A stretch of DNA of 64,000 nt from a virus: the IMG/VR virus record IMGVR_UViG_3300047476_001246; one strand, 5' to 3'. How positions within the stretch are numbered: the first letter of the stretch is position 1; each line of letters opens with the position of its first letter. Below are positions 45,666 through 53,789 of this stretch, piece after piece. The position numbers were made by a program, and so were the translations under genes. The notes beneath the pieces are model-generated. The model made no database searches. It saw only the letters and a program-made list of their open reading frames with translations, and had not been told where the DNA came from.

Positions 45666-45859
45666 TGAGATTGCTCCGTTTGATTTTGAATCCAGCCTAC
45701 TTCGTAATAAAGTCCTAGTATATCTAAGTATTCTAATTTGTAATACTTGAAACTAAGTTTTCTTTTGTTAGTTTTTAATACCCAAACACGATCTTTTATC
45801 CTTAAAGACCAAACATGTCCTTGATTAGTCCGCACATGATAAAAGTTTAGTATGGACAT
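45662..45859 (-). CDS. Hypothetical protein
   Basis: Short ORF; its start overlaps the queE stop. Confidence 0.5.
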   Translation of the reverse strand: MSILNFYHVRTNQGHVWSLRIKDRVWVLKTNKRKLSFKYYKLEYLDILGLYYEVGWIQNQTEQSQ

Positions 45860-46716
45860 TAAGTGCCCCACTCATTTTTAAACAGTGGTACCTGTAGTCG
45901 ATCGCTATAACGCAAGCCATGCTTCATTGCATGTAGTGCAACTGCTTTATTATTAAGAGAGTATACACTTTCTACACCGCCCACAGGCATTAGATACACA
46001 TCGCCCTTAAACCCTGCTGCACGATATTGTTCGTGTGCTTTCAATGCATCACGTACATCCTCATCTGTGGCAACAACAAACTTGAGATACGTGTGTCCAA
46101 TTTCTTCGTAGCTGCGAACAATGTCTGGTCGAATAGCATCTTCCCACCGTTCGCCACTGGCAGGAAGTTTAGCACTTACACTAAATGTAAGAGCATTGCG
46201 TCCTCTGCGACCAAGTTTTGGATTCAATGTCCAGTCCAGCAAGTAATGTCTAAAATCTTTTGACAGCTCTTGAGTACCGTTTGTTTCAAAAGTAATTTCT
46301 TTTAGTTTTTGCATACGAGGATGATTTAGCAGATCCTCATAACTGCGTTGCCAACCCAGTAAGGGTTCACCGCCAGTGATAACAAGATGTTCTTCCTTCC
46401 ATTTACCATGCGGAAGAATTTCCATGATACGTTCCACAATGGCATCACTAGTTAATACAGGACTAAGATCTTTGAATCTTGGATCCCAGCTAGCATAACT
46501 ATCACAGCCTGTACTTACCAATGGTAGTTCTTCATACCGGCTATACTTGTTGGGATCTACAGACTCAGCTTCTTTACTTAACTCACCTCTAGGCATACCA
46601 AAGCCGGCACATTTGAAGTTGCATCCGAATGTGCGTAAGAACACACTGGGCACACCCATATAGCGTCCTTCGCCTTGTATACTATAAAATAATTCTGCTA
46701 CTTTGATTTTGCTCAT
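45859..46716 (-). CDS. queE: 7-carboxy-7-deazaguanine synthase (radical SAM)
   Basis: ELFYSIQGEG, FLRTFGCNFKC...CDS, ITGGEPLL, ETNGT, RLQV. Confidence 0.92.
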   Translation of the reverse strand: MSKIKVAELFYSIQGEGRYMGVPSVFLRTFGCNFKCAGFGMPRGELSKEAESVDPNKYSRYEELPLVSTGCDSYASWDPRFKDLSPVLTSDAIVERIMEILPHGKWKEEHLVITGGEPLLGWQRSYEDLLNHPRMQKLKEITFETNGTQELSKDFRHYLLDWTLNPKLGRRGRNALTFSVSAKLPASGERWEDAIRPDIVRSYEEIGHTYLKFVVATDEDVRDALKAHEQYRAAGFKGDVYLMPVGGVESVYSLNNKAVALHAMKHGLRYSDRLQVPLFKNEWGT

Positions 46717-46719
46717 AAT

Positions 46720-46869
46720 TTACCAATGTCGAATAATACCTGCAACAATAAACAGGTTTGTTACAATATATACTAGCACAATAGCGGTACGGATGCAAGC
46801 AATTTTGTTTGCTTCTGCATCCGTAGTTCCTGCTTTTTCGCCTAGTGATTTAGCCCAGAGACGCCACAT
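46720..46869 (-). CDS. Small membrane protein (49 aa, MWRLWAKSLGEKAGTTDAEANKIACIRTAIVLVYIVTNLFIVAGIIRHW), absent from the ORF track
   Basis: Translated by hand; fills the gap between the cupin and queE. Confidence 0.7.
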   Translation of the reverse strand: MWRLWAKSLGEKAGTTDAEANKIACIRTAIVLVYIVTNLFIVAGIIRHW

Positions 46870-47210
46870 CAATGATTTCGTTTTCCGTCAAATACACAAT
46901 TGAATACAAGATTCATTTCGCCAGTGTTGATTACACGATGAAATGCACCATCTGGGATTAGCACAATGTCTCCGGCCTTGACTGGAAATGGTGTATCCGT
47001 TTCGTTGCCTACAATCATTTCTCCAAAACCTTGTACAAAGAAATATACTTCTTCTTGCCCAGCGTGTCTATGTCCTCTTGTACTTTGTCCTCGATATAGT
47101 TTGGTAGAACTTAATACAAGATTGTTTAATGTTCGATTGTCTTTAAGCAGGTAAACATCGTTGTCTTTGACAATTTCACCGCCAATGTCGTGTACATTGT
47201 ATTTGTTCAT
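46869..47210 (-). CDS. Cupin domain protein
   Basis: GHRH..QEEVYFF..G.G, GDIVLIP.G.FH.V.N. Confidence 0.85.
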   Translation of the reverse strand: MNKYNVHDIGGEIVKDNDVYLLKDNRTLNNLVLSSTKLYRGQSTRGHRHAGQEEVYFFVQGFGEMIVGNETDTPFPVKAGDIVLIPDGAFHRVINTGEMNLVFNCVFDGKRNH

Positions 47211-47326
47211 GCAAATAAATCCTCATTCCATTCACGATGTCCTTCACGGAAAGCCATGTTAGCTTGTGTTTCGCGAACTTCAACACGATAGCACCATAAG
47301 CGTTGTTCTAACCGTGTATTAAACAT
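47207..47326 (-). pseudogene. Displaced original 3' end of queD, now a 39-aa mini-ORF (MFNTRLEQ-RLWCYRVEVRETQANMAFREGHREWNEDLFA)
   Basis: 29/30 aa identical to the QueD C-terminus encoded at 48764-48853; its TGA overlaps the cupin ATG. Confidence 0.85.
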
Positions 47327-47624
47327 TTTTTAATCCTATTCTACTATAACCTAACTTTGACTTGAGTTCCCTGCTTTTCTTCTCTGGTTTCCATGCTCTA
47401 GGATCAACTGTTTCGCCTGTGAGTTCATAACGAAAGTCTGGATCATAAACCATATAGCCCAACTTGTTCCATTTGATTACCCCGTCATCAAAGAGAAAGA
47501 TACAACCACGACACATACAGAAACTGGCACCGTTGTTACTCATTACATTACCATTTACCGTGCCAACATATTTGACGACACGACCTTGGTGCATTTCTTT
47601 CAGTGCTTCGTAGTAGTCAATCAT
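47319..47624 (-). CDS. Hypothetical protein (cassette passenger)
   Basis: 101 aa ORF with an ATGA overlap. Confidence 0.65.
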   Translation of the reverse strand: MIDYYEALKEMHQGRVVKYVGTVNGNVMSNNGASFCMCRGCIFLFDDGVIKWNKLGYMVYDPDFRYELTGETVDPRAWKPEKKSRELKSKLGYSRIGLKNV

Positions 47625-47851
47625 TTTTCAACTCCAAAAACAAATTTGATACGGTTGGCAACAACCTTGCCTTCATACCGTGTATCGTTAGCAACATCTA
47701 AACATTCATTGATGATTAGTTCAGCAAACTTAGCCAAACGGATCTTGTCCCATTCTTGAATTTTGAATCCATGATCGGGATCAAATTGATATGTCTTATC
47801 AGCAGACAAGTTAGCCTGTTCAGTAAGTTGTTTTATCTTCTGTTCGTTCAT
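47621..47851 (-). CDS. Hypothetical protein (cassette passenger)
   Basis: 76 aa ORF; KFAELIINEC motif common in small phage ORFs. Confidence 0.65.
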   Translation of the reverse strand: MNEQKIKQLTEQANLSADKTYQFDPDHGFKIQEWDKIRLAKFAELIINECLDVANDTRYEGKVVANRIKFVFGVEK

Positions 47852-48708
47852 AGGTAATAATATTCCTTGTTGGCTGGGTCTTTTAATCTACTATGTAGTT
47901 TGTATTCAGATATGTTTAATTCTAACATAGCCTGTTTGAGAGTGTCAAATGTTCTGGATTCGGCTACAATCTTTCTTGCCCTGCCGTTTTGACTACCAGC
48001 ACATTTACCTTTTCTACCTTTACTGCTTTTTTCAAAAACCTCTTGTCGTTTTTCTTCTGACCAGTTTGCTCTTGTTTCTTTGGCTTTCTGTCTTGCTAAT
48101 GTTTCGGATTCTGGATTGCGGTTCTCTACACCTTTTCGTGCCGCTTCTTTTCTGCGTTCTTCGCCCATTCGCTCTTTACCTAACCGGGCACTACGCTTTC
48201 TATCTTCTGGATCACGAGCCTTTACACCTTCTACTAATCGCGGTATATTATCTCGTAATCGTTCTTTTAACTTCAGTCCTTCTTCAGTCTGATACCATTC
48301 TTTAGTTTTAGTATGGACAGTATCTAACAATCTTTTCTTTTCTTCTTCAGTTCTGTTTGCCCATATTTGTTTGATTTGATTACTAAACTCTCGACGGCGT
48401 TCGTCGGTCCAGCCAGCTTTAGTGTCTCCGCCTATTACATCCTTTGCTACATTGTAGTAGTCATCGGAATAGTAGGCATTGACTTTATCTAAATAGAATT
48501 TTTCACGCTCTAATAGATATTGCCGATCTTCAATTTCAACATATTCAATAATAGAACGGGTAAAGTTTTCTATTCCGTGTTTTTTTACAGCCCTTTGAAA
48601 AACTTTACCAGATCCAACATATCCATCGTCTATGGTACCAGCATGTGAACCAATATACTTTTTACCATTGATGTTATTGGTCCACTCGTAAATAAATCCA
48701 TAATACAT
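47848..48708 (-). CDS. GIY-YIG (Seg-like) homing endonuclease
   Basis: GFIYEWTN.INGKKYIGSH, YVGSG, F.R.I.E, EREKFY, YYN; basic helical C-terminal DNA-binding region. Confidence 0.88.
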   Translation of the reverse strand: MYYGFIYEWTNNINGKKYIGSHAGTIDDGYVGSGKVFQRAVKKHGIENFTRSIIEYVEIEDRQYLLEREKFYLDKVNAYYSDDYYNVAKDVIGGDTKAGWTDERRREFSNQIKQIWANRTEEEKKRLLDTVHTKTKEWYQTEEGLKLKERLRDNIPRLVEGVKARDPEDRKRSARLGKERMGEERRKEAARKGVENRNPESETLARQKAKETRANWSEEKRQEVFEKSSKGRKGKCAGSQNGRARKIVAESRTFDTLKQAMLELNISEYKLHSRLKDPANKEYYYL

Positions 48709-48748
48709 AGTTCGTCCTTTGCTACTAACTATGTTTATTTATGCTGAT

Positions 48749-49336
48749 TTATTCAAAACCTTCAAATAAATCTTCGTTCCATTCTCTATGACCCTCTCTA
48801 AACGCCATATTAGATTGGGTTTCTCGGACCTCAACTCTATAACACCATAAGCGGTCGGCTTCACCCGGACCCCACATATCTGGAATATATACAGCGTTGA
48901 TATATTTGTATAACATATCGGCTAACCCCTCACACCCAAGTTTAGGCAAAATTGTGAGTTTAGCCATCTTCTTTTCTTGTAGAAGTTTATATACTTCAAG
49001 ATGGGGGTCATCGGAACTAACTAGAAGGGTATGATCGAACTTGTCCTCTAAAAAGCGTTTAAGTTCCTTAAGACCACCGTAGTCGGCAGCCCAGTTACGC
49101 ACATCCAAATGGTCTGTGCCAAAATAAAACTTCATTGAAAAACTATAGCCATGAATAAGATTGCAATGGCTATCAGCACGCCATTGGCGATACGCACATG
49201 GAAATGCATCGTGATATTCTTTGGTGCTTGTGTATTTGTAAGTTCTTGGTTGATTACCAAATGCACCAAGTTGTTCTAAAGTTGCAACTGCTTGTTCAGG
49301 TGTTTGATTTCCTACATCAACATTGATTGTTGTCAT
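48749..49336 (-). CDS. queD: 6-carboxytetrahydropterin synthase (PTPS family)
   Basis: CNLIHGY, DYGGLK.LK..L...FDHTLL, GCEGLA, VEVRET. Confidence 0.85.
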   Translation of the reverse strand: MTTINVDVGNQTPEQAVATLEQLGAFGNQPRTYKYTSTKEYHDAFPCAYRQWRADSHCNLIHGYSFSMKFYFGTDHLDVRNWAADYGGLKELKRFLEDKFDHTLLVSSDDPHLEVYKLLQEKKMAKLTILPKLGCEGLADMLYKYINAVYIPDMWGPGEADRLWCYRVEVRETQSNMAFREGHREWNEDLFEGFE

Positions 49337-49429
49337 GCTATTCTCCTATGTTAAATTTTAGCATAGGCTTGCAGAATTTGTAAAGCGGGATGAATGCCAG
49401 AAAGGCCGCTGTGTAGAATGATATTTATA
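49337..49429 (-). promoter_or_regulatory. Late promoter TATAAATA plus a structured 5' leader of queD
   Basis: TATAAATA at 49429-49422; AGCGG/CCGCT stem with an inner GCC/GGC hairpin; CCTATG/CATAGG hairpin overlapping the AGGAG RBS. Confidence 0.55.
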
Positions 49430-49434
49430 TTTTG

Positions 49435-49614
49435 TTATTGCTTCAATATAATACAATTAGCAGATACACGATAACGGTCTGATCCCCACCCACGTATAAC
49501 TGCTTCTCTTGTTTTAAGGCACTCTTCGTACCCTGCTGTTGGTAAAACTATAGATCCTTTTGCTGGAGGTACGTTGGGTGATACTGCATGTAGCATTACA
49601 ATCAAGGTCCACAT
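49435..49614 (-). CDS. Hypothetical protein (59 aa, MWTLIVMLHAV...CIILKQ), absent from the ORF track
   Basis: Translated by hand; fills the gap. Confidence 0.6.
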   Translation of the reverse strand: MWTLIVMLHAVSPNVPPAKGSIVLPTAGYEECLKTREAVIRGWGSDRYRVSANCIILKQ

Positions 49615-49616
49615 AT

Positions 49617-49955
49617 TTAGGCCATTTCTCTGGCGTGACGTTCCATTACTTCTTGCAAATTGTTTGCTGTAATATGCTCAAAAAATTTCATGATAAACAT
49701 GCTGGCAGCGGGTGCATCATCACCGTGGAAATGTAGTCTAGTGCCACCTGTACCGTTTTGATGATGATGACAGCGTTTACCTCGACCGTAGCTTACATAG
49801 TAAACAGATTGCTCGCGACCACGAGTGTCGTACCATTTGTCTTGATATACTTTGCCGTCGACCATTCGATACCACTCAACCATTTCGTCGTTCAGCTTAT
49901 CTACATCAACCCAAACAGCATAAGTCACGGTGCAACCGGGCGGGAGTGCGATCAT
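49617..49955 (-). CDS. Hypothetical protein
   Basis: Start MIALPPG via ATGA overlap with the PRTase stop. Confidence 0.65.
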   Translation of the reverse strand: MIALPPGCTVTYAVWVDVDKLNDEMVEWYRMVDGKVYQDKWYDTRGREQSVYYVSYGRGKRCHHHQNGTGGTRLHFHGDDAPAASMFIMKFFEHITANNLQEVMERHAREMA

Positions 49956-50503
49956 CGCTGCCACCAATCTTCCCATGGGAATACTACCCAACAGGGACTT
50001 TCGTGTTTGTTGATACTGGTACCTGCATAATCAATATTTTTGAATCCACTCGCTTCGTTGTTGACAAGGACTGCAAATTTTGTGGTATCGTTCCAGATTG
50101 AATCCCAAACCGGACTGTTAGGCAAACATCCACTGACCCAGTCTTGACGAATCCAATCTATTGTGGCACCAGTGTCATTGATATCGTCCACAATTAAAAT
50201 CTTTTTACGACGTGCAGGATCTGTTTCTGTACCAGACTCGTCACGTTGGTCATGCGGTACATAACCAAATGCTTCTTCGGCCATCCATAAATTACTTTCA
50301 GAATCTCCGTCACCGTCTCTGAGGCTGACCTTCAATGTGTGCATGGGCACACCCAGATACTGACTGATCATAACAGCAGGAACAAGTCCTCCGCGAGTAA
50401 TTCCTACTACATAATCTGGACGCCAATTCTGTGCATACATGTCTCTTAGCATGGTTTGCACCAAAGATTGTACATGTGCGTTTGAATAATATAATTTGTT
50501 CAT
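49952..50503 (-). CDS. Purine phosphoribosyltransferase (Gpt-like type I PRTase)
   Basis: VVGITRGGLVPA, ILIVDDINDTGAT (PRPP-binding loop), WVVFPWE. Confidence 0.88.
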   Translation of the reverse strand: MNKLYYSNAHVQSLVQTMLRDMYAQNWRPDYVVGITRGGLVPAVMISQYLGVPMHTLKVSLRDGDGDSESNLWMAEEAFGYVPHDQRDESGTETDPARRKKILIVDDINDTGATIDWIRQDWVSGCLPNSPVWDSIWNDTTKFAVLVNNEASGFKNIDYAGTSINKHESPCWVVFPWEDWWQR

Positions 50504-51288
50504 TTGATACCTCGAAATTGATTGTTAGCAATATCCACGGCCTCAATAACTCCGGAACTTATTGCATGAGTTTGAAGAACATTTATTATAGCACGAACAT
50601 CTTTAGGAAAGCAAGCTCCACCATAACCAAATTGACCGTCGGGTCCGGGCACTTGATTGTGACTTGAGCCCATTCGATCATCCACTTCAATCATTTCTGT
50701 AAACTTGTTCCAATCCCCACCCAATTGCTCACACAGTTTGTAGTACTGATTTAGTACAGTGACTTTGGTCGCTAAAAAGCTATTCATAAAATATTTCACG
50801 AGGCTTGCTGTGACCAAATCTGTTTTTACAATTGGCACAGACAGTCTTACCGCACTTGTTTGTATAATACGAATTGCATCATGACAGTCGTTGTTTCCAC
50901 CCACAAATATAAAGTTGGGATTTAGATAATCATAAATGGCCTGTCGCGCCACCAAAAATTCCGGAACATGATATAAATTGTAAACATGTTTATAGTCTAA
51001 CCAGAAATCCGGAGGAACAGTGCTCTTTACAATAATGGCACCTGAGTAGTGTCCGATTAAAGATTTCAATGTATCGCTGATAACAGTAGTATCGCATGCA
51101 CCGCTATCATCAGACGGGGTAGGTACGCATACAAAAATTGCACCTGGACGATCCTCAAGCAACTGGTTGATACTGTCAACAGAACCTGCAACTGCGGGAT
51201 CGTAAAATTTTACAGAATGGTCGCTGCCGAGCCAGCTGGCCTCAACTGCTCGACCAACATAGCCCATGCCAATAATACCAATTTTCAT
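50500..51288 (-). CDS. UDP-glucose/GDP-mannose dehydrogenase family protein (short form)
   Basis: GMGYVG, FVCVPTP, KSTVPP, PEFL, KYFMNSFLA.K, GYGGACFPKD. Confidence 0.88.
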   Translation of the reverse strand: MKIGIIGMGYVGRAVEASWLGSDHSVKFYDPAVAGSVDSINQLLEDRPGAIFVCVPTPSDDSGACDTTVISDTLKSLIGHYSGAIIVKSTVPPDFWLDYKHVYNLYHVPEFLVARQAIYDYLNPNFIFVGGNNDCHDAIRIIQTSAVRLSVPIVKTDLVTASLVKYFMNSFLATKVTVLNQYYKLCEQLGGDWNKFTEMIEVDDRMGSSHNQVPGPDGQFGYGGACFPKDVRAIINVLQTHAISSGVIEAVDIANNQFRGIK

Positions 51289-51299
51289 AAATTGGCGTC

Positions 51300-51488
51300 T
51301 TAGTCTCGTTCCATTGCTGATGCTTCTTTGATAAGTTGCACTAACTCATCTAAAGTATTGCACAGAATTTTAACACTGGCCCAATCACCTTCTTCATTGC
51401 GACCACTGGCTTCAAACATAAAGCCATTGTCGTACATGTTAACGTTAAAGCTATCACTGATTTTAGTTAGTTTATCTTCGATTTTCAT
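51300..51488 (-). CDS. Hypothetical protein
   Basis: 62 aa ORF with an AAGGAG RBS. Confidence 0.65.
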   Translation of the reverse strand: MKIEDKLTKISDSFNVNMYDNGFMFEASGRNEEGDWASVKILCNTLDELVQLIKEASAMERD

Positions 51489-51513
51489 TTTTTCTCCTTG
51501 AAAAATTAATAGA

Positions 51514-51741
51514 TTATTTAAGTCCCTTTTTTTTCTTTTCTTCCTGCATGCCTTGTGCTATCATTTTTTTAACTATCAGCATGACCCTGCCTTTTTCTTT
51601 TTCAGTTAAAATCTTTACCAGCGTGAGTTTGTCTTCGTAGCTTTTGGCATTGTCAAGAAACTCAGCTGGTACAGTGATTTTAGGCTTTTTTGGTTTAAAC
51701 TTTTTTAAATTTGCTTGTATATCGTCGTTATCGTCGGACAT
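51514..51741 (-). CDS. Hypothetical protein
   Basis: 75 aa Lys-rich ORF. Confidence 0.6.
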   Translation of the reverse strand: MSDDNDDIQANLKKFKPKKPKITVPAEFLDNAKSYEDKLTLVKILTEKEKGRVMLIVKKMIAQGMQEEKKKKGLK

Positions 51742-51746
51742 TCATG

Positions 51747-52424
51747 TTATTCTTTCTTGATACCAAATAGCTGAAGCAAACTTAAAAATAGATTAATAAA
51801 ATCTAAATACAGGGTTAGAGCGCCCATTGCTTCAACAGCCGGACCATCCGATTCCATGATCTGTTCTCTAATCTTTTGAGTATCATATGCAGTCAGTCCT
51901 AAAAAGATTACAACTGCTGCGGCACTAATTACGGTTTGAAGAACAGACGATCCGATAAAGATATTTACGATGCTAGTGATAATAATGGCGATTAACGCCA
52001 CCATTAAGTATTTTCCTACACTGTCAAGACTCTGCTTGGTAAAATAACCGTATACGCTCATAACACAGAACAACACACCAGCACCAAAGAACGCACTGGC
52101 AATACTGGCTGTGGTGTAAACAACAAAAATTGTAGCAAAGCTGATGCCCATTAGTGCCGCAAAGCCGTGTAGGGTCAATTGAGCAGTAGTTTTACTTGGA
52201 TTATTGCCTAACACATATCCTACTGCAAAGATAGCAGCCAACGGTGCAAATATAACCACCCATTTCATAATGCCTGTAAATAGAAACGTCATTAGTGCAG
52301 CATTACTTGCTACCAATGCGCTAACGATCATACTTGTAAAAACAGCCATAGCCATGTTTCCATATACACGACTCATTGCTGTGTTAATCTCCGATGCAGT
52401 TTTATAAGGTAAAGCGTAGTCCAT
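51747..52424 (-). CDS. Bax inhibitor-1/YccA family membrane protein
   Basis: About seven TM helices; GLTAYDTQKI, ALTLYLDFINLF. Confidence 0.92.
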   Translation of the reverse strand: MDYALPYKTASEINTAMSRVYGNMAMAVFTSMIVSALVASNAALMTFLFTGIMKWVVIFAPLAAIFAVGYVLGNNPSKTTAQLTLHGFAALMGISFATIFVVYTTASIASAFFGAGVLFCVMSVYGYFTKQSLDSVGKYLMVALIAIIITSIVNIFIGSSVLQTVISAAAVVIFLGLTAYDTQKIREQIMESDGPAVEAMGALTLYLDFINLFLSLLQLFGIKKE

Positions 52425-52435
52425 AATTAATCTCC

Positions 52436-53200
52436 TTATCGTGGGGCAAATTCTTGTTGCAGTTTAACGTTGTCAAAAAACTCTTTCTTGGTTGCAGGGT
52501 CGTTCTTAAACGCACCTTTTAACACGGTAGTTTGGGTGAGACTACTGTGCGCCATAATTCCTCTATTTTCGCAACAGCCATGTGTCGCCTGTATGTATAC
52601 AGCCACATCCCCACTTCCAGTTGCAAATTCGATTTCTCGTGCAATGTCCATGCAAAGTTCTTCCTGAAGTGTACCGCGCCTCGCGCACCATTGAGCGATT
52701 CTAGTGTATTTGCTAAGACCAATGAGTTTCGGTCCAGCAATGATCCCAATATAAGCCACACCGGATACAGGCTGGTGATGATGACTGCAAACACTTTTAA
52801 GTTCTGAACGGACAACGAGCATACCTTCGTATTTTCCCGCCGTGTCATTTGGAAATGCAGTTGCATTTGGAGTCGGATCATATCGGCCTGCCATTAGTTC
52901 GTTGTAATACATCTTAGCAAGTCTGCGAGCAGTGCCTTGACTGTTAGGATCTGTGTCTCTGTCAATCAACAATGTGTCAAGTACTATTTCAAATGCTGCT
53001 GTGGCTTCGTCGATCAGTTTCTCCTTGTCTTTGTCGCTTACATAATCACTGATATTGTCGCCGGCCCAGTGTCGCTTATTGTCACGCTTCAATCGTGCTA
53101 AAATATTGCGATACAAAGGACCTTCACTGTAGCCACCTTCGCCAGCCATTGCACCTAGTGCTGTTTCGTCATTGCTTTCATACATTTTTTCGTAAACCAT
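52436..53200 (-). CDS. folE: GTP cyclohydrolase I
   Basis: TARRLAKMY, SVCSHHHQP, IGLSKYTR, LQEEL, HGCCENRG; start MVYEK follows a GGAG RBS. Confidence 0.93.
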   Translation of the reverse strand: MVYEKMYESNDETALGAMAGEGGYSEGPLYRNILARLKRDNKRHWAGDNISDYVSDKDKEKLIDEATAAFEIVLDTLLIDRDTDPNSQGTARRLAKMYYNELMAGRYDPTPNATAFPNDTAGKYEGMLVVRSELKSVCSHHHQPVSGVAYIGIIAGPKLIGLSKYTRIAQWCARRGTLQEELCMDIAREIEFATGSGDVAVYIQATHGCCENRGIMAHSSLTQTTVLKGAFKNDPATKKEFFDNVKLQQEFAPR

Positions 53201-53204
53201 ATAA

Positions 53205-53789
53205 TTAATCTCCAATAATTTCTATATCCCGCAAGTCTGGATATTCGTGATATTTAGGCGGGTCATTAACAAAATACAATTTTTCTAAACCGATCCTTGC
53301 ATCTTCAATAGTGGGCCGATAATGGTAGCCCACCATGAACTTGCGCTGCGACTGCCACGGCTGTGTTGCGAGGTCGCGTCCATCATATCTTTGCTGTAAT
53401 AAAACGCCATATGCTTCCTTGTCATCTAGTAGTATAGCACCACCGTGGCCTATTTGTAAAGGCTTGTTATGACCAAAACTTACGCATTGCATTTGTCCCG
53501 GTCTATACATATCATTTTCCAATCTTCTGGCACTATCCCAAATGTTAGTGCCATGAAACGGATATTCTCCTACCCACTGCTCTTCGGTATACATGTATGT
53601 AATACCCAATTTATGCATAAGCATGGGTATACTTAAATAGGTAAACGCGGTAAATGCTGTTTGGGTCACACGATGATATCTCAAACACAACTCAATAGCA
53701 TGGGTGCAGCAATCGGTCATTATGGCATAAGGTGCGCCAGTTTTCTTTGCTAATAACTTTTCGAATTGTAGTATTGGTTCAAATGCCAC
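53205..53789 (-). CDS. Short DegT/DnrJ-family PLP aminotransferase-like protein
   Basis: TDCCTHAIEL, WDSA, SFGHNKPL..GHGGAIL; probable GTG start at 53789. Confidence 0.7.
   Translation of the reverse strand: MAFEPILQFEKLLAKKTGAPYAIMTDCCTHAIELCLRYHRVTQTAFTAFTYLSIPMLMHKLGITYMYTEEQWVGEYPFHGTNIWDSARRLENDMYRPGQMQCVSFGHNKPLQIGHGGAILLDDKEAYGVLLQQRYDGRDLATQPWQSQRKFMVGYHYRPTIEDARIGLEKLYFVNDPPKYHEYPDLRDIEIIGD

Follow-up and report, generated by a model that had tools for sequence, protein, structure and literature searches.

In the queD gene of large freshwater phages, we probably see a homing element that replaces the end of its target gene, of the kind known as WHO elements in yeast and as mORFs in fungal mitochondria. 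As reconstructed from sequence comparisons, the unit would comprise the 3′ half of a resistant queD allele, a GIY-YIG endonuclease gene, exchangeable cargo genes and a queD 3′ fragment to which a short leader is fused. The stretch analyzed (64,000 nucleotides; hereafter, the window) is DNA of a large uncultured freshwater phage with related contigs of up to 364 kb, while cultured phages contain distant relatives only (identity of 31% or less for the GIY-YIG protein and 54% or less for QueD). On the minus strand, the gene order is queD (49336-48749), the GIY-YIG gene (48708-47848), a 76-aa ORF, a 101-aa ORF, an orphan queD end, a cupin gene, a 50-aa ORF and queE. Related loci are designated by an L number. 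The features that define the target gene and its two ends are the following:

48749..49336, minus strand: queD, encoding a 6-carboxytetrahydropterin synthase-like protein of 195 aa (Pfam PTPS, E 5e-15; PHROG 2389)
48764..48853, minus strand: in-gene 30-codon tail, from a foreign ortholog (tail comparison)
48763-48752, minus strand: carrier-typical EGFE end of queD, directly behind the in-gene tail
47207..47302, minus strand: orphan native queD end (codons 162-191 plus Ala and stop), putative right homology arm
46869..47210, minus strand: cupin gene, native downstream neighbour of queD (Pfam Cupin_2; L103, L179)

The C-terminal 30 codons of queD are present twice, at 48853-48764 and 47302-47213 (both on the minus strand, offset 1551), and represent the sole duplicated peptide of the window (tblastn E 1e-15). 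A recount confirmed what an initial sequence-only reading had reported, i.e., that 29 of 30 residues are identical, that 15 codons differ synonymously, three of them as AGA versus CGT (codons 167, 180 and 184), and that a GIY-YIG gene and two small ORFs (286, 76 and 101 aa) lie between the copies. The sole residue difference is S/A at codon 175; with this non-synonymous change, 71 of 90 nt are identical, the longest exact match being 11 nt. The in-gene copy ends in EGFE, while most relatives stop one residue past DLF. A mini-ORF of 39 aa (47326-47207), with its ATG overlapping the end of the 101-aa ORF, runs in frame into the orphan and terminates with it, at a TGA that overlaps the cupin ATG (47210-47207).

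The in-gene tail had initially been taken as synonymously recoded, which did not hold. Among 62 distinct tails classed as empty (i.e., from cassette-free alleles), pairs differed on average at 13.3 codons synonymously (median 13), and 34% of them reached 15. The value of 15 out of 30 thus reflects ordinary ortholog divergence, and special recoding was rejected on these grounds. A seemingly recoded duplicate of a gene end will usually be a foreign ortholog, a caution that applies to other cases. With regard to tail affinities, the six nearest neighbours of the in-gene tail were all carriers of the nuclease gene (75-78 of 90 nt), whereas those of the orphan were mostly empty alleles (up to 83 of 90 nt). 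Similarly, the mean synonymous distance to empty alleles was 17.2 for the in-gene tail and 11.8 for the orphan. On this comparison, the in-gene tail is foreign and the orphan native.

The cassette-free arrangement predicted beforehand, with queD ending in DLFA and joined straight to the cupin gene, was found in L103, where the same upstream genes precede a queD whose stop overlaps the cupin ATG; L179 has the same join. Together with the proximity of the orphan to empty alleles, this upheld its assignment as the native end. In total, 98 of 118 cassette-free alleles end one residue past DLF, and in 49 of 118 the stop overlaps the next ATG, whereas carriers have EGFE-like extensions. Drift after a local duplication of the phage's own tail, or a chimera assembled from two strains, would account for the similarity of the tails and nothing further. 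Each tail is closer to alleles of other phages than to its partner, orphans are free of stops and frameshifts, and the layout recurs in many contigs, including independent IMG/VR contigs. Moreover, contigs of two studies match the window exactly, with 0 differing letters over the GIY-YIG gene, the cargo and most of the orphan. Tail affinities, recurrence and exact matches thus leave duplication or chimerism an almost negligible probability, and both were rejected.

The nuclease gene and its control elements are located as follows:

47848..48708, minus strand: free-standing Seg-like GIY-YIG endonuclease of 286 aa, intact (PHROG 314, E 7e-28; profile match to the I-TevI catalytic domain, PDB 1LN0)
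48742-48736, minus strand: T4-late-promoter-like ATAAATA (from sequence)
48734-48705, minus strand: hairpin over the GIY-YIG ribosome-binding site and ATG (same fold in 15 of 15 carriers; z -2.96)

Pfam scores for the GIY-YIG domain fell just below the cut-off, and annotated Seg-like matches were found. Residues Y7, Y18, G20, E69 and N86 are invariant in 13 homologues, in all of which the ORF is intact, and correspond to Tyr6, Tyr17, Gly19, Glu75 and Asn90 of I-TevI in the alignment with PDB 1LN0; it is these five residues that identify a Seg-like GIY-YIG N-terminal module. At the place of I-TevI Arg27, the profile alignment has a gap and the AlphaFold model a pLDDT of <50; with a mean pLDDT of 52 (the C-terminal helix-turn-helix-like part alone is near 80), the model is too poor to judge the catalytic domain. 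Relatives share 73-93% identity with dN/dS values of 0.05-0.11, as expected for a gene under purifying selection. The hairpin is almost invariant in sequence among carriers, and its fold is therefore without covariation support. An ATAAATA late promoter together with a hairpin over the ribosome-binding site is known for T4 homing nucleases (PMC2988022).

The GIY-YIG gene directly follows queD in 19 of 20 related loci, and its presence at this one locus is patchy, with 19 carrier alleles versus 118 without, as in free-standing homing; L189, which retains only a GIY-YIG relic, was not counted as a carrier, and L205, in which an HNH-like gene is nested at the GIY-YIG 5′ end, was not counted as empty. 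This patchiness, the completeness of queD with its own stop before the nuclease gene and the lack of any Rfam match at E≤1 within 46500-50500 agree with the earlier description of a mobile element without intron or intein. A group I intron or intein, which would interrupt the frame and be spliced, was discarded in view of the queD stop and the Rfam result. Allele-specific cleavage by the GIY-YIG protein and biased inheritance of its gene are predicted activities.

The part of queD that seems to have travelled with the nuclease gene, and the zone within it that may bear the cut, are these:

48749..49060, minus strand: donor-derived queD tract, approximately codons 93-195, with an approximate left edge at codons 88-94 (sliding identity; allele pairs)
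49013..49042, minus strand: candidate cleavage and immunity zone, codons 99-108, including the conserved FDH motif (carrier linkage)

Sliding identity showed that queD of the window is like empty alleles in its 5′ part, up to about codon 88-94, and like carriers in its 3′ half. From codon 94 on, the best carrier match was 0.89-0.96 versus 0.69-0.89 for the best empty match in most sliding windows; the signal was mixed at codons 148-174 and reversed upstream of the tract. Pairs of alleles gave sharp left edges at codons 91/92 (L094/L202), 94/95 (L099/L005) and 96/97 (L082/L083), and L083 and L088, different in codons 34-96, are identical in codons 97-191 and in the GIY-YIG gene. In the nuclease-free L025, codons 101-159 are common to L005 and L099. 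In segment trees, the carrier label needed 13 and 12 changes within codons 34-93 and 9, 7 and 8 within codons 94-191, compared with a mean of 15.4 and a minimum of 12-13 after label shuffling; carriers cluster on the trees of the 3′ segments and hardly on those of the 5′ segments. Based on the allele-pair edges and the trees, the replaced part amounts to about 100 codons. Of the earlier proposal that the gene is repaired with a diverged tail, the foreign origin was retained, but not the extent of 30 codons. Likewise, the suggested mapping of where foreign sequence starts placed the onset of recent transfers at codons 91-101, far upstream of the tail. Shared tracts running from these codons through the GIY-YIG gene in different backgrounds are the pattern of co-conversion. 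queD is highly mosaic in these phages, and its sequences should be handled with caution, as hybrids.

The tightest carrier-linked change in queD lies at codons 107-108. An AGY serine codon at position 107 was present in 19 of 19 carriers (11 clusters) and in 19 of 118 non-carriers, and Ser107-Ser108, instead of the common Ala-Gln or Ala-Glu, in 17 of 19 versus 8 of 118, counts that come from related and not phylogenetically independent alleles. At least four of the eight Ser-Ser non-carriers (L005, L018, L019, L025) have donor-type tracts or an EGFE scar, and Ser-Ser is likewise present in each of the four WY-subtype alleles among the non-carriers. Homing nucleases tend to target conserved codons. 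The FDH motif within the zone aligns with PDB 7V0F. On balance, this linkage favors cleavage within codons 99-108 (49042-49013), some 300 bp away from the GIY-YIG start, and makes codons 106-108, upstream of the duplicated tail, the best immunity candidate.

This contrasted with the earlier idea that the cleavage site is destroyed inside the 30-codon tail, given the linkage at codons 107-108, the tract starts at 91-101 and one orphan that starts near codon 145. A cut in or beside the duplicated codons, with immunity conferred by the synonymous differences of the in-gene tail, would be in keeping with carrier tails clustering together and showing some codon skews (V170 GTC, T173, S175 TCN), and with the commonest junction at codon 161/162, as many WHO fragments start just behind the cut (PMC7282813). 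It is nevertheless unlikely: no tail polymorphism cleanly separating carriers was found among carrier and non-carrier tails, and the tail of carrier L099 is even of the empty type (0.91 to empties versus 0.81 to carriers). Left edges between codons 109 and 161 are absent from the carriers compared, right junctions begin near codon 145 (L209), and a site wholly inside the tail would be cut in the orphan, which keeps the native tail beside the nuclease. Selection for the Ser107-type 3′ half as an enzyme variant, with nuclease and cargo hitchhiking, would fit the non-synonymous nature of the linked changes and the nuclease-free donor-tract alleles (L018, L025, L208). As it leaves the orphan, the fixed junction and the other nucleases at queD (L048, L189, L205, L181 group) unexplained, we consider it highly improbable.

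To the right of the nuclease gene, the window contains:

47621..47851, minus strand: cargo ORF of 76 aa without family, one of a set of small interchangeable genes
47319..47624, minus strand: cargo ORF of 101 aa without family, the end of which is the fixed right arm
47303..47326, minus strand: eight-codon in-frame leader MFNTRLEQ fused to queD codon 162 (junction 47303/47302)

The leader probably represents the first codons of a cargo gene. In the 90 nt that precede the junction, L087, L181, L188, L190, L192 and L194 are 100% identical (window, 97%), while their orphans diverge starting at codon 163 (63-93% per 30 nt) and are followed by different genes. For L181 and L192, the orphan matches empty alleles that have the downstream gene in common with them (94% in the tail, 92-100% downstream). 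The identical right arm next to differing orphans and neighbours indicates that the junction is fixed and that the orphan comes from each recipient. The locus therefore combines a foreign in-frame 3′ end upstream of the nuclease with a native one downstream, which each recipient supplies anew; part of the loci showing this contain a second nuclease. Since four or five of the six sharp-junction loci carry a different nuclease or none (L190 none; L188 incomplete), the role of this GIY-YIG protein in driving the sharp right junction is putative; the right arm is reused by other elements, and passive recombination may contribute. Taken as the whole explanation, i.e., one or a few old insertions followed by ordinary homologous recombination that swaps orphan and flanks, with a nuclease that is no driver or cuts elsewhere, passive recombination would suit L190, which has its own orphan without nuclease, the mosaicism of queD and the free shuffling of cargo. 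However, it predicts neither left edges clustered at codons 91-101 nor complete Ser107 linkage, neither strong purifying selection on the GIY-YIG gene nor its constant place behind queD, and has only about one chance in eight in our estimation.

With regard to cargo, the genes of the window (47319-47851, minus strand) and of L081, L082, L086, L090 and L093 are small, unannotated and interchangeable; many start with MN-x-R/Q-I and end with FGVE, which suggests exchange through shared ends. A further arrangement is found in L181, L187, L194 and L197 (L192 and L190 being related), i.e., a divergent queD (60%), a reverse-strand NUMOD3-rich GIY-YIG-like ORF of about 230 aa, the last GIY-YIG codons and the same cargo and right arm. 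L181, L194 and L197, whose queD is 60% identical, are 98-100% identical among themselves over 480 nt in spite of different flanks, and also have an intact nuclease ORF on the reverse strand; the final seven codons of the GIY-YIG gene studied here persist in L181. Near-identity in different phage backgrounds points to whole-gene replacement of queD. The queD leader (49340-49411, minus strand) has a conserved RNA pseudoknot and a hairpin over the ribosome-binding site, with 97% of cells paired and 12 double (compensatory) changes in the pseudoknot; one strict pattern matches 60 of 139 queD loci, and the element is preQ1-I-like in look, with no Rfam match. This leader may be the left homology arm for the L181-group element.

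In the end-replacing homing model, which we prefer, the nuclease would, late in mixed infection, cut a cassette-free queD near codons 99-108, some 55-60 codons ahead of the duplicated tail, while Ser107(-Ser108) would let the donor allele escape. The left end would then recombine just upstream of the cut, so that the donor 3′ half replaces that of the recipient, in agreement with the observed tracts. The right end of the recipient would pair with the donor orphan, since phages vary in the genes behind queD and no other homology is available on that side of the nuclease, and the recipient's last 30 codons would become the new orphan, as the renewed orphans suggest. Pairing with the in-gene copy, or later recombination between tails, would yield resistant alleles without nuclease. 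As to its origin, a nuclease gene behind queD may have gained the orphan by one-sided, illegitimate repair, presumably at least four times, as orphan junctions are found at codon 162 (the commonest), 168 (L093), 175 (L084) and near 145 (L209, with a divergent queD as its source). The leader, being in frame, probably keeps the next gene translationally coupled.

Most of the 20 GIY-YIG loci have an orphan; L083, L094, L095 and L096, which include the two most divergent GIY-YIG genes, do not, and agree with an ancestral state without orphan as well as with later loss. L005 and L009 retain EGFE, joined to the native end via a 5-nt microhomology, and L018, L019 and L025 combine a donor middle with a native-type tail, either from excision or from repair without nuclease. 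The cassette-free derivatives with donor tracts or an EGFE scar (L005, L009, L018, L025) speak against the earlier proposal that tail divergence hinders excision. Joints that skip the cassette in environmental contigs probably stem from co-occurring related phages and are not counted as evidence of excision. The sequence-only reading had named one finding as contrary to itself, namely both tails in relatives without the endonuclease. Formally, L181, L190, L192, L194 and L197 show an orphan without this nuclease; we read them as derived states because most keep the last GIY-YIG codons or carry a second nuclease.

The mechanism proposed here equals that published for the WHO elements of yeast FBA1 (Coughlan et al. 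2020; PMC7282813). Members of the WHO family proper encode an intein-like (LAGLIDADG-type) and zinc-finger protein at FBA1, whereas the phage element encodes a GIY-YIG protein at queD. WHO cuts lie slightly upstream of the start of a fragment of about 400 bp, compared with a putative distance of about 55-60 codons and a fragment of 90 bp in the phage, where native codons ~94-161 would thus be lost; in addition, the phage fragment stands in frame behind its own ATG, with cargo genes aboard. Fungal mitochondrial mORFs are known from Allomyces macrogynus atp6, Glomus atp6, atp9, cox2 and nad3, Rhizopus atp9 and Mortierella cox2, and likewise have a foreign in-frame C-terminus with an endonuclease gene behind it (GIY-YIG at Glomus atp9) and a native C-terminus stranded downstream that is closer to relatives' alleles (PMC3630166). 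To these, the phage case adds orphan renewal visible across many hosts, cargo genes and T4-type translational control. In T4, free-standing nucleases as a rule cleave at a distance; SegE, SegF and SegG are free-standing GIY-YIG proteins encoded beside their target gene that cut hundreds of bases off, the target allele is co-converted, and a late promoter with a ribosome-binding-site hairpin is found as in segB, mobE and I-TevI (PMC2988022). Repair in T4 uses homologous genes flanking the nuclease, with no stranded gene end described in the parts of that source drawn on here; in the queD element, the carried fragment would replace downstream synteny. By analogy, its layout resembles that of mORFs, its mechanism that of WHO elements and its distant cut that of the T4 Seg nucleases.

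No phage precedent of end-replacing homing was found in the literature, which is weak evidence, as subscription papers were mostly outside the search. The present case would extend such homing from yeast and fungal mitochondria to bacteriophages, with states before, during and after visible in natural populations and a candidate cut site narrowed to about 30 bp. It could also explain intronless homing in mosaic genomes with varying genes behind the target, and its layout resembles a natural home-and-rescue drive. A broader reading, which we offer tentatively and rate at slightly below even, takes the stranded end as an in-frame homology arm that the element carries along and that makes homing independent of downstream synteny, so that a far-upstream cutter could invade any queD. 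An unrelated nuclease could then take the arm over for a whole-gene swap to a 60%-identical queD (L181 group), with the conserved leader RNA as left arm, and alleles of deazaguanine-pathway genes in phages might be replaced to a major extent by way of such elements.

Several other arrangements mark queD as a hot spot for such elements. L048 has an unrelated GIY-YIG gene (37%) behind queD with a shorter orphan (12-codon match), and L209 a GIY-YIG relic (residues 210-286) with an orphan from a divergent queD clade. In L189, the layout at queD is a mirror image: a different nuclease-like ORF (283 aa) is followed by a complete queD and has a stranded 5′ fragment of the gene (codons 29-66) upstream; in L097, a related ORF precedes queD. 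Among 73 distant GIY-YIG loci, one further case of a duplicated terminus was found: in L325, the last 58 codons of the Gp23 major capsid gene are duplicated (90% aa; 1183-1356 and 2335-2508), and the orphan sits behind a broken GIY-YIG gene and again starts with ATG. Finally, folE, queD and queE are grouped within 8 kb, surrounded by sugar-nucleotide genes (45859-53215, minus strand), pointing to a 7-deazaguanine pathway.
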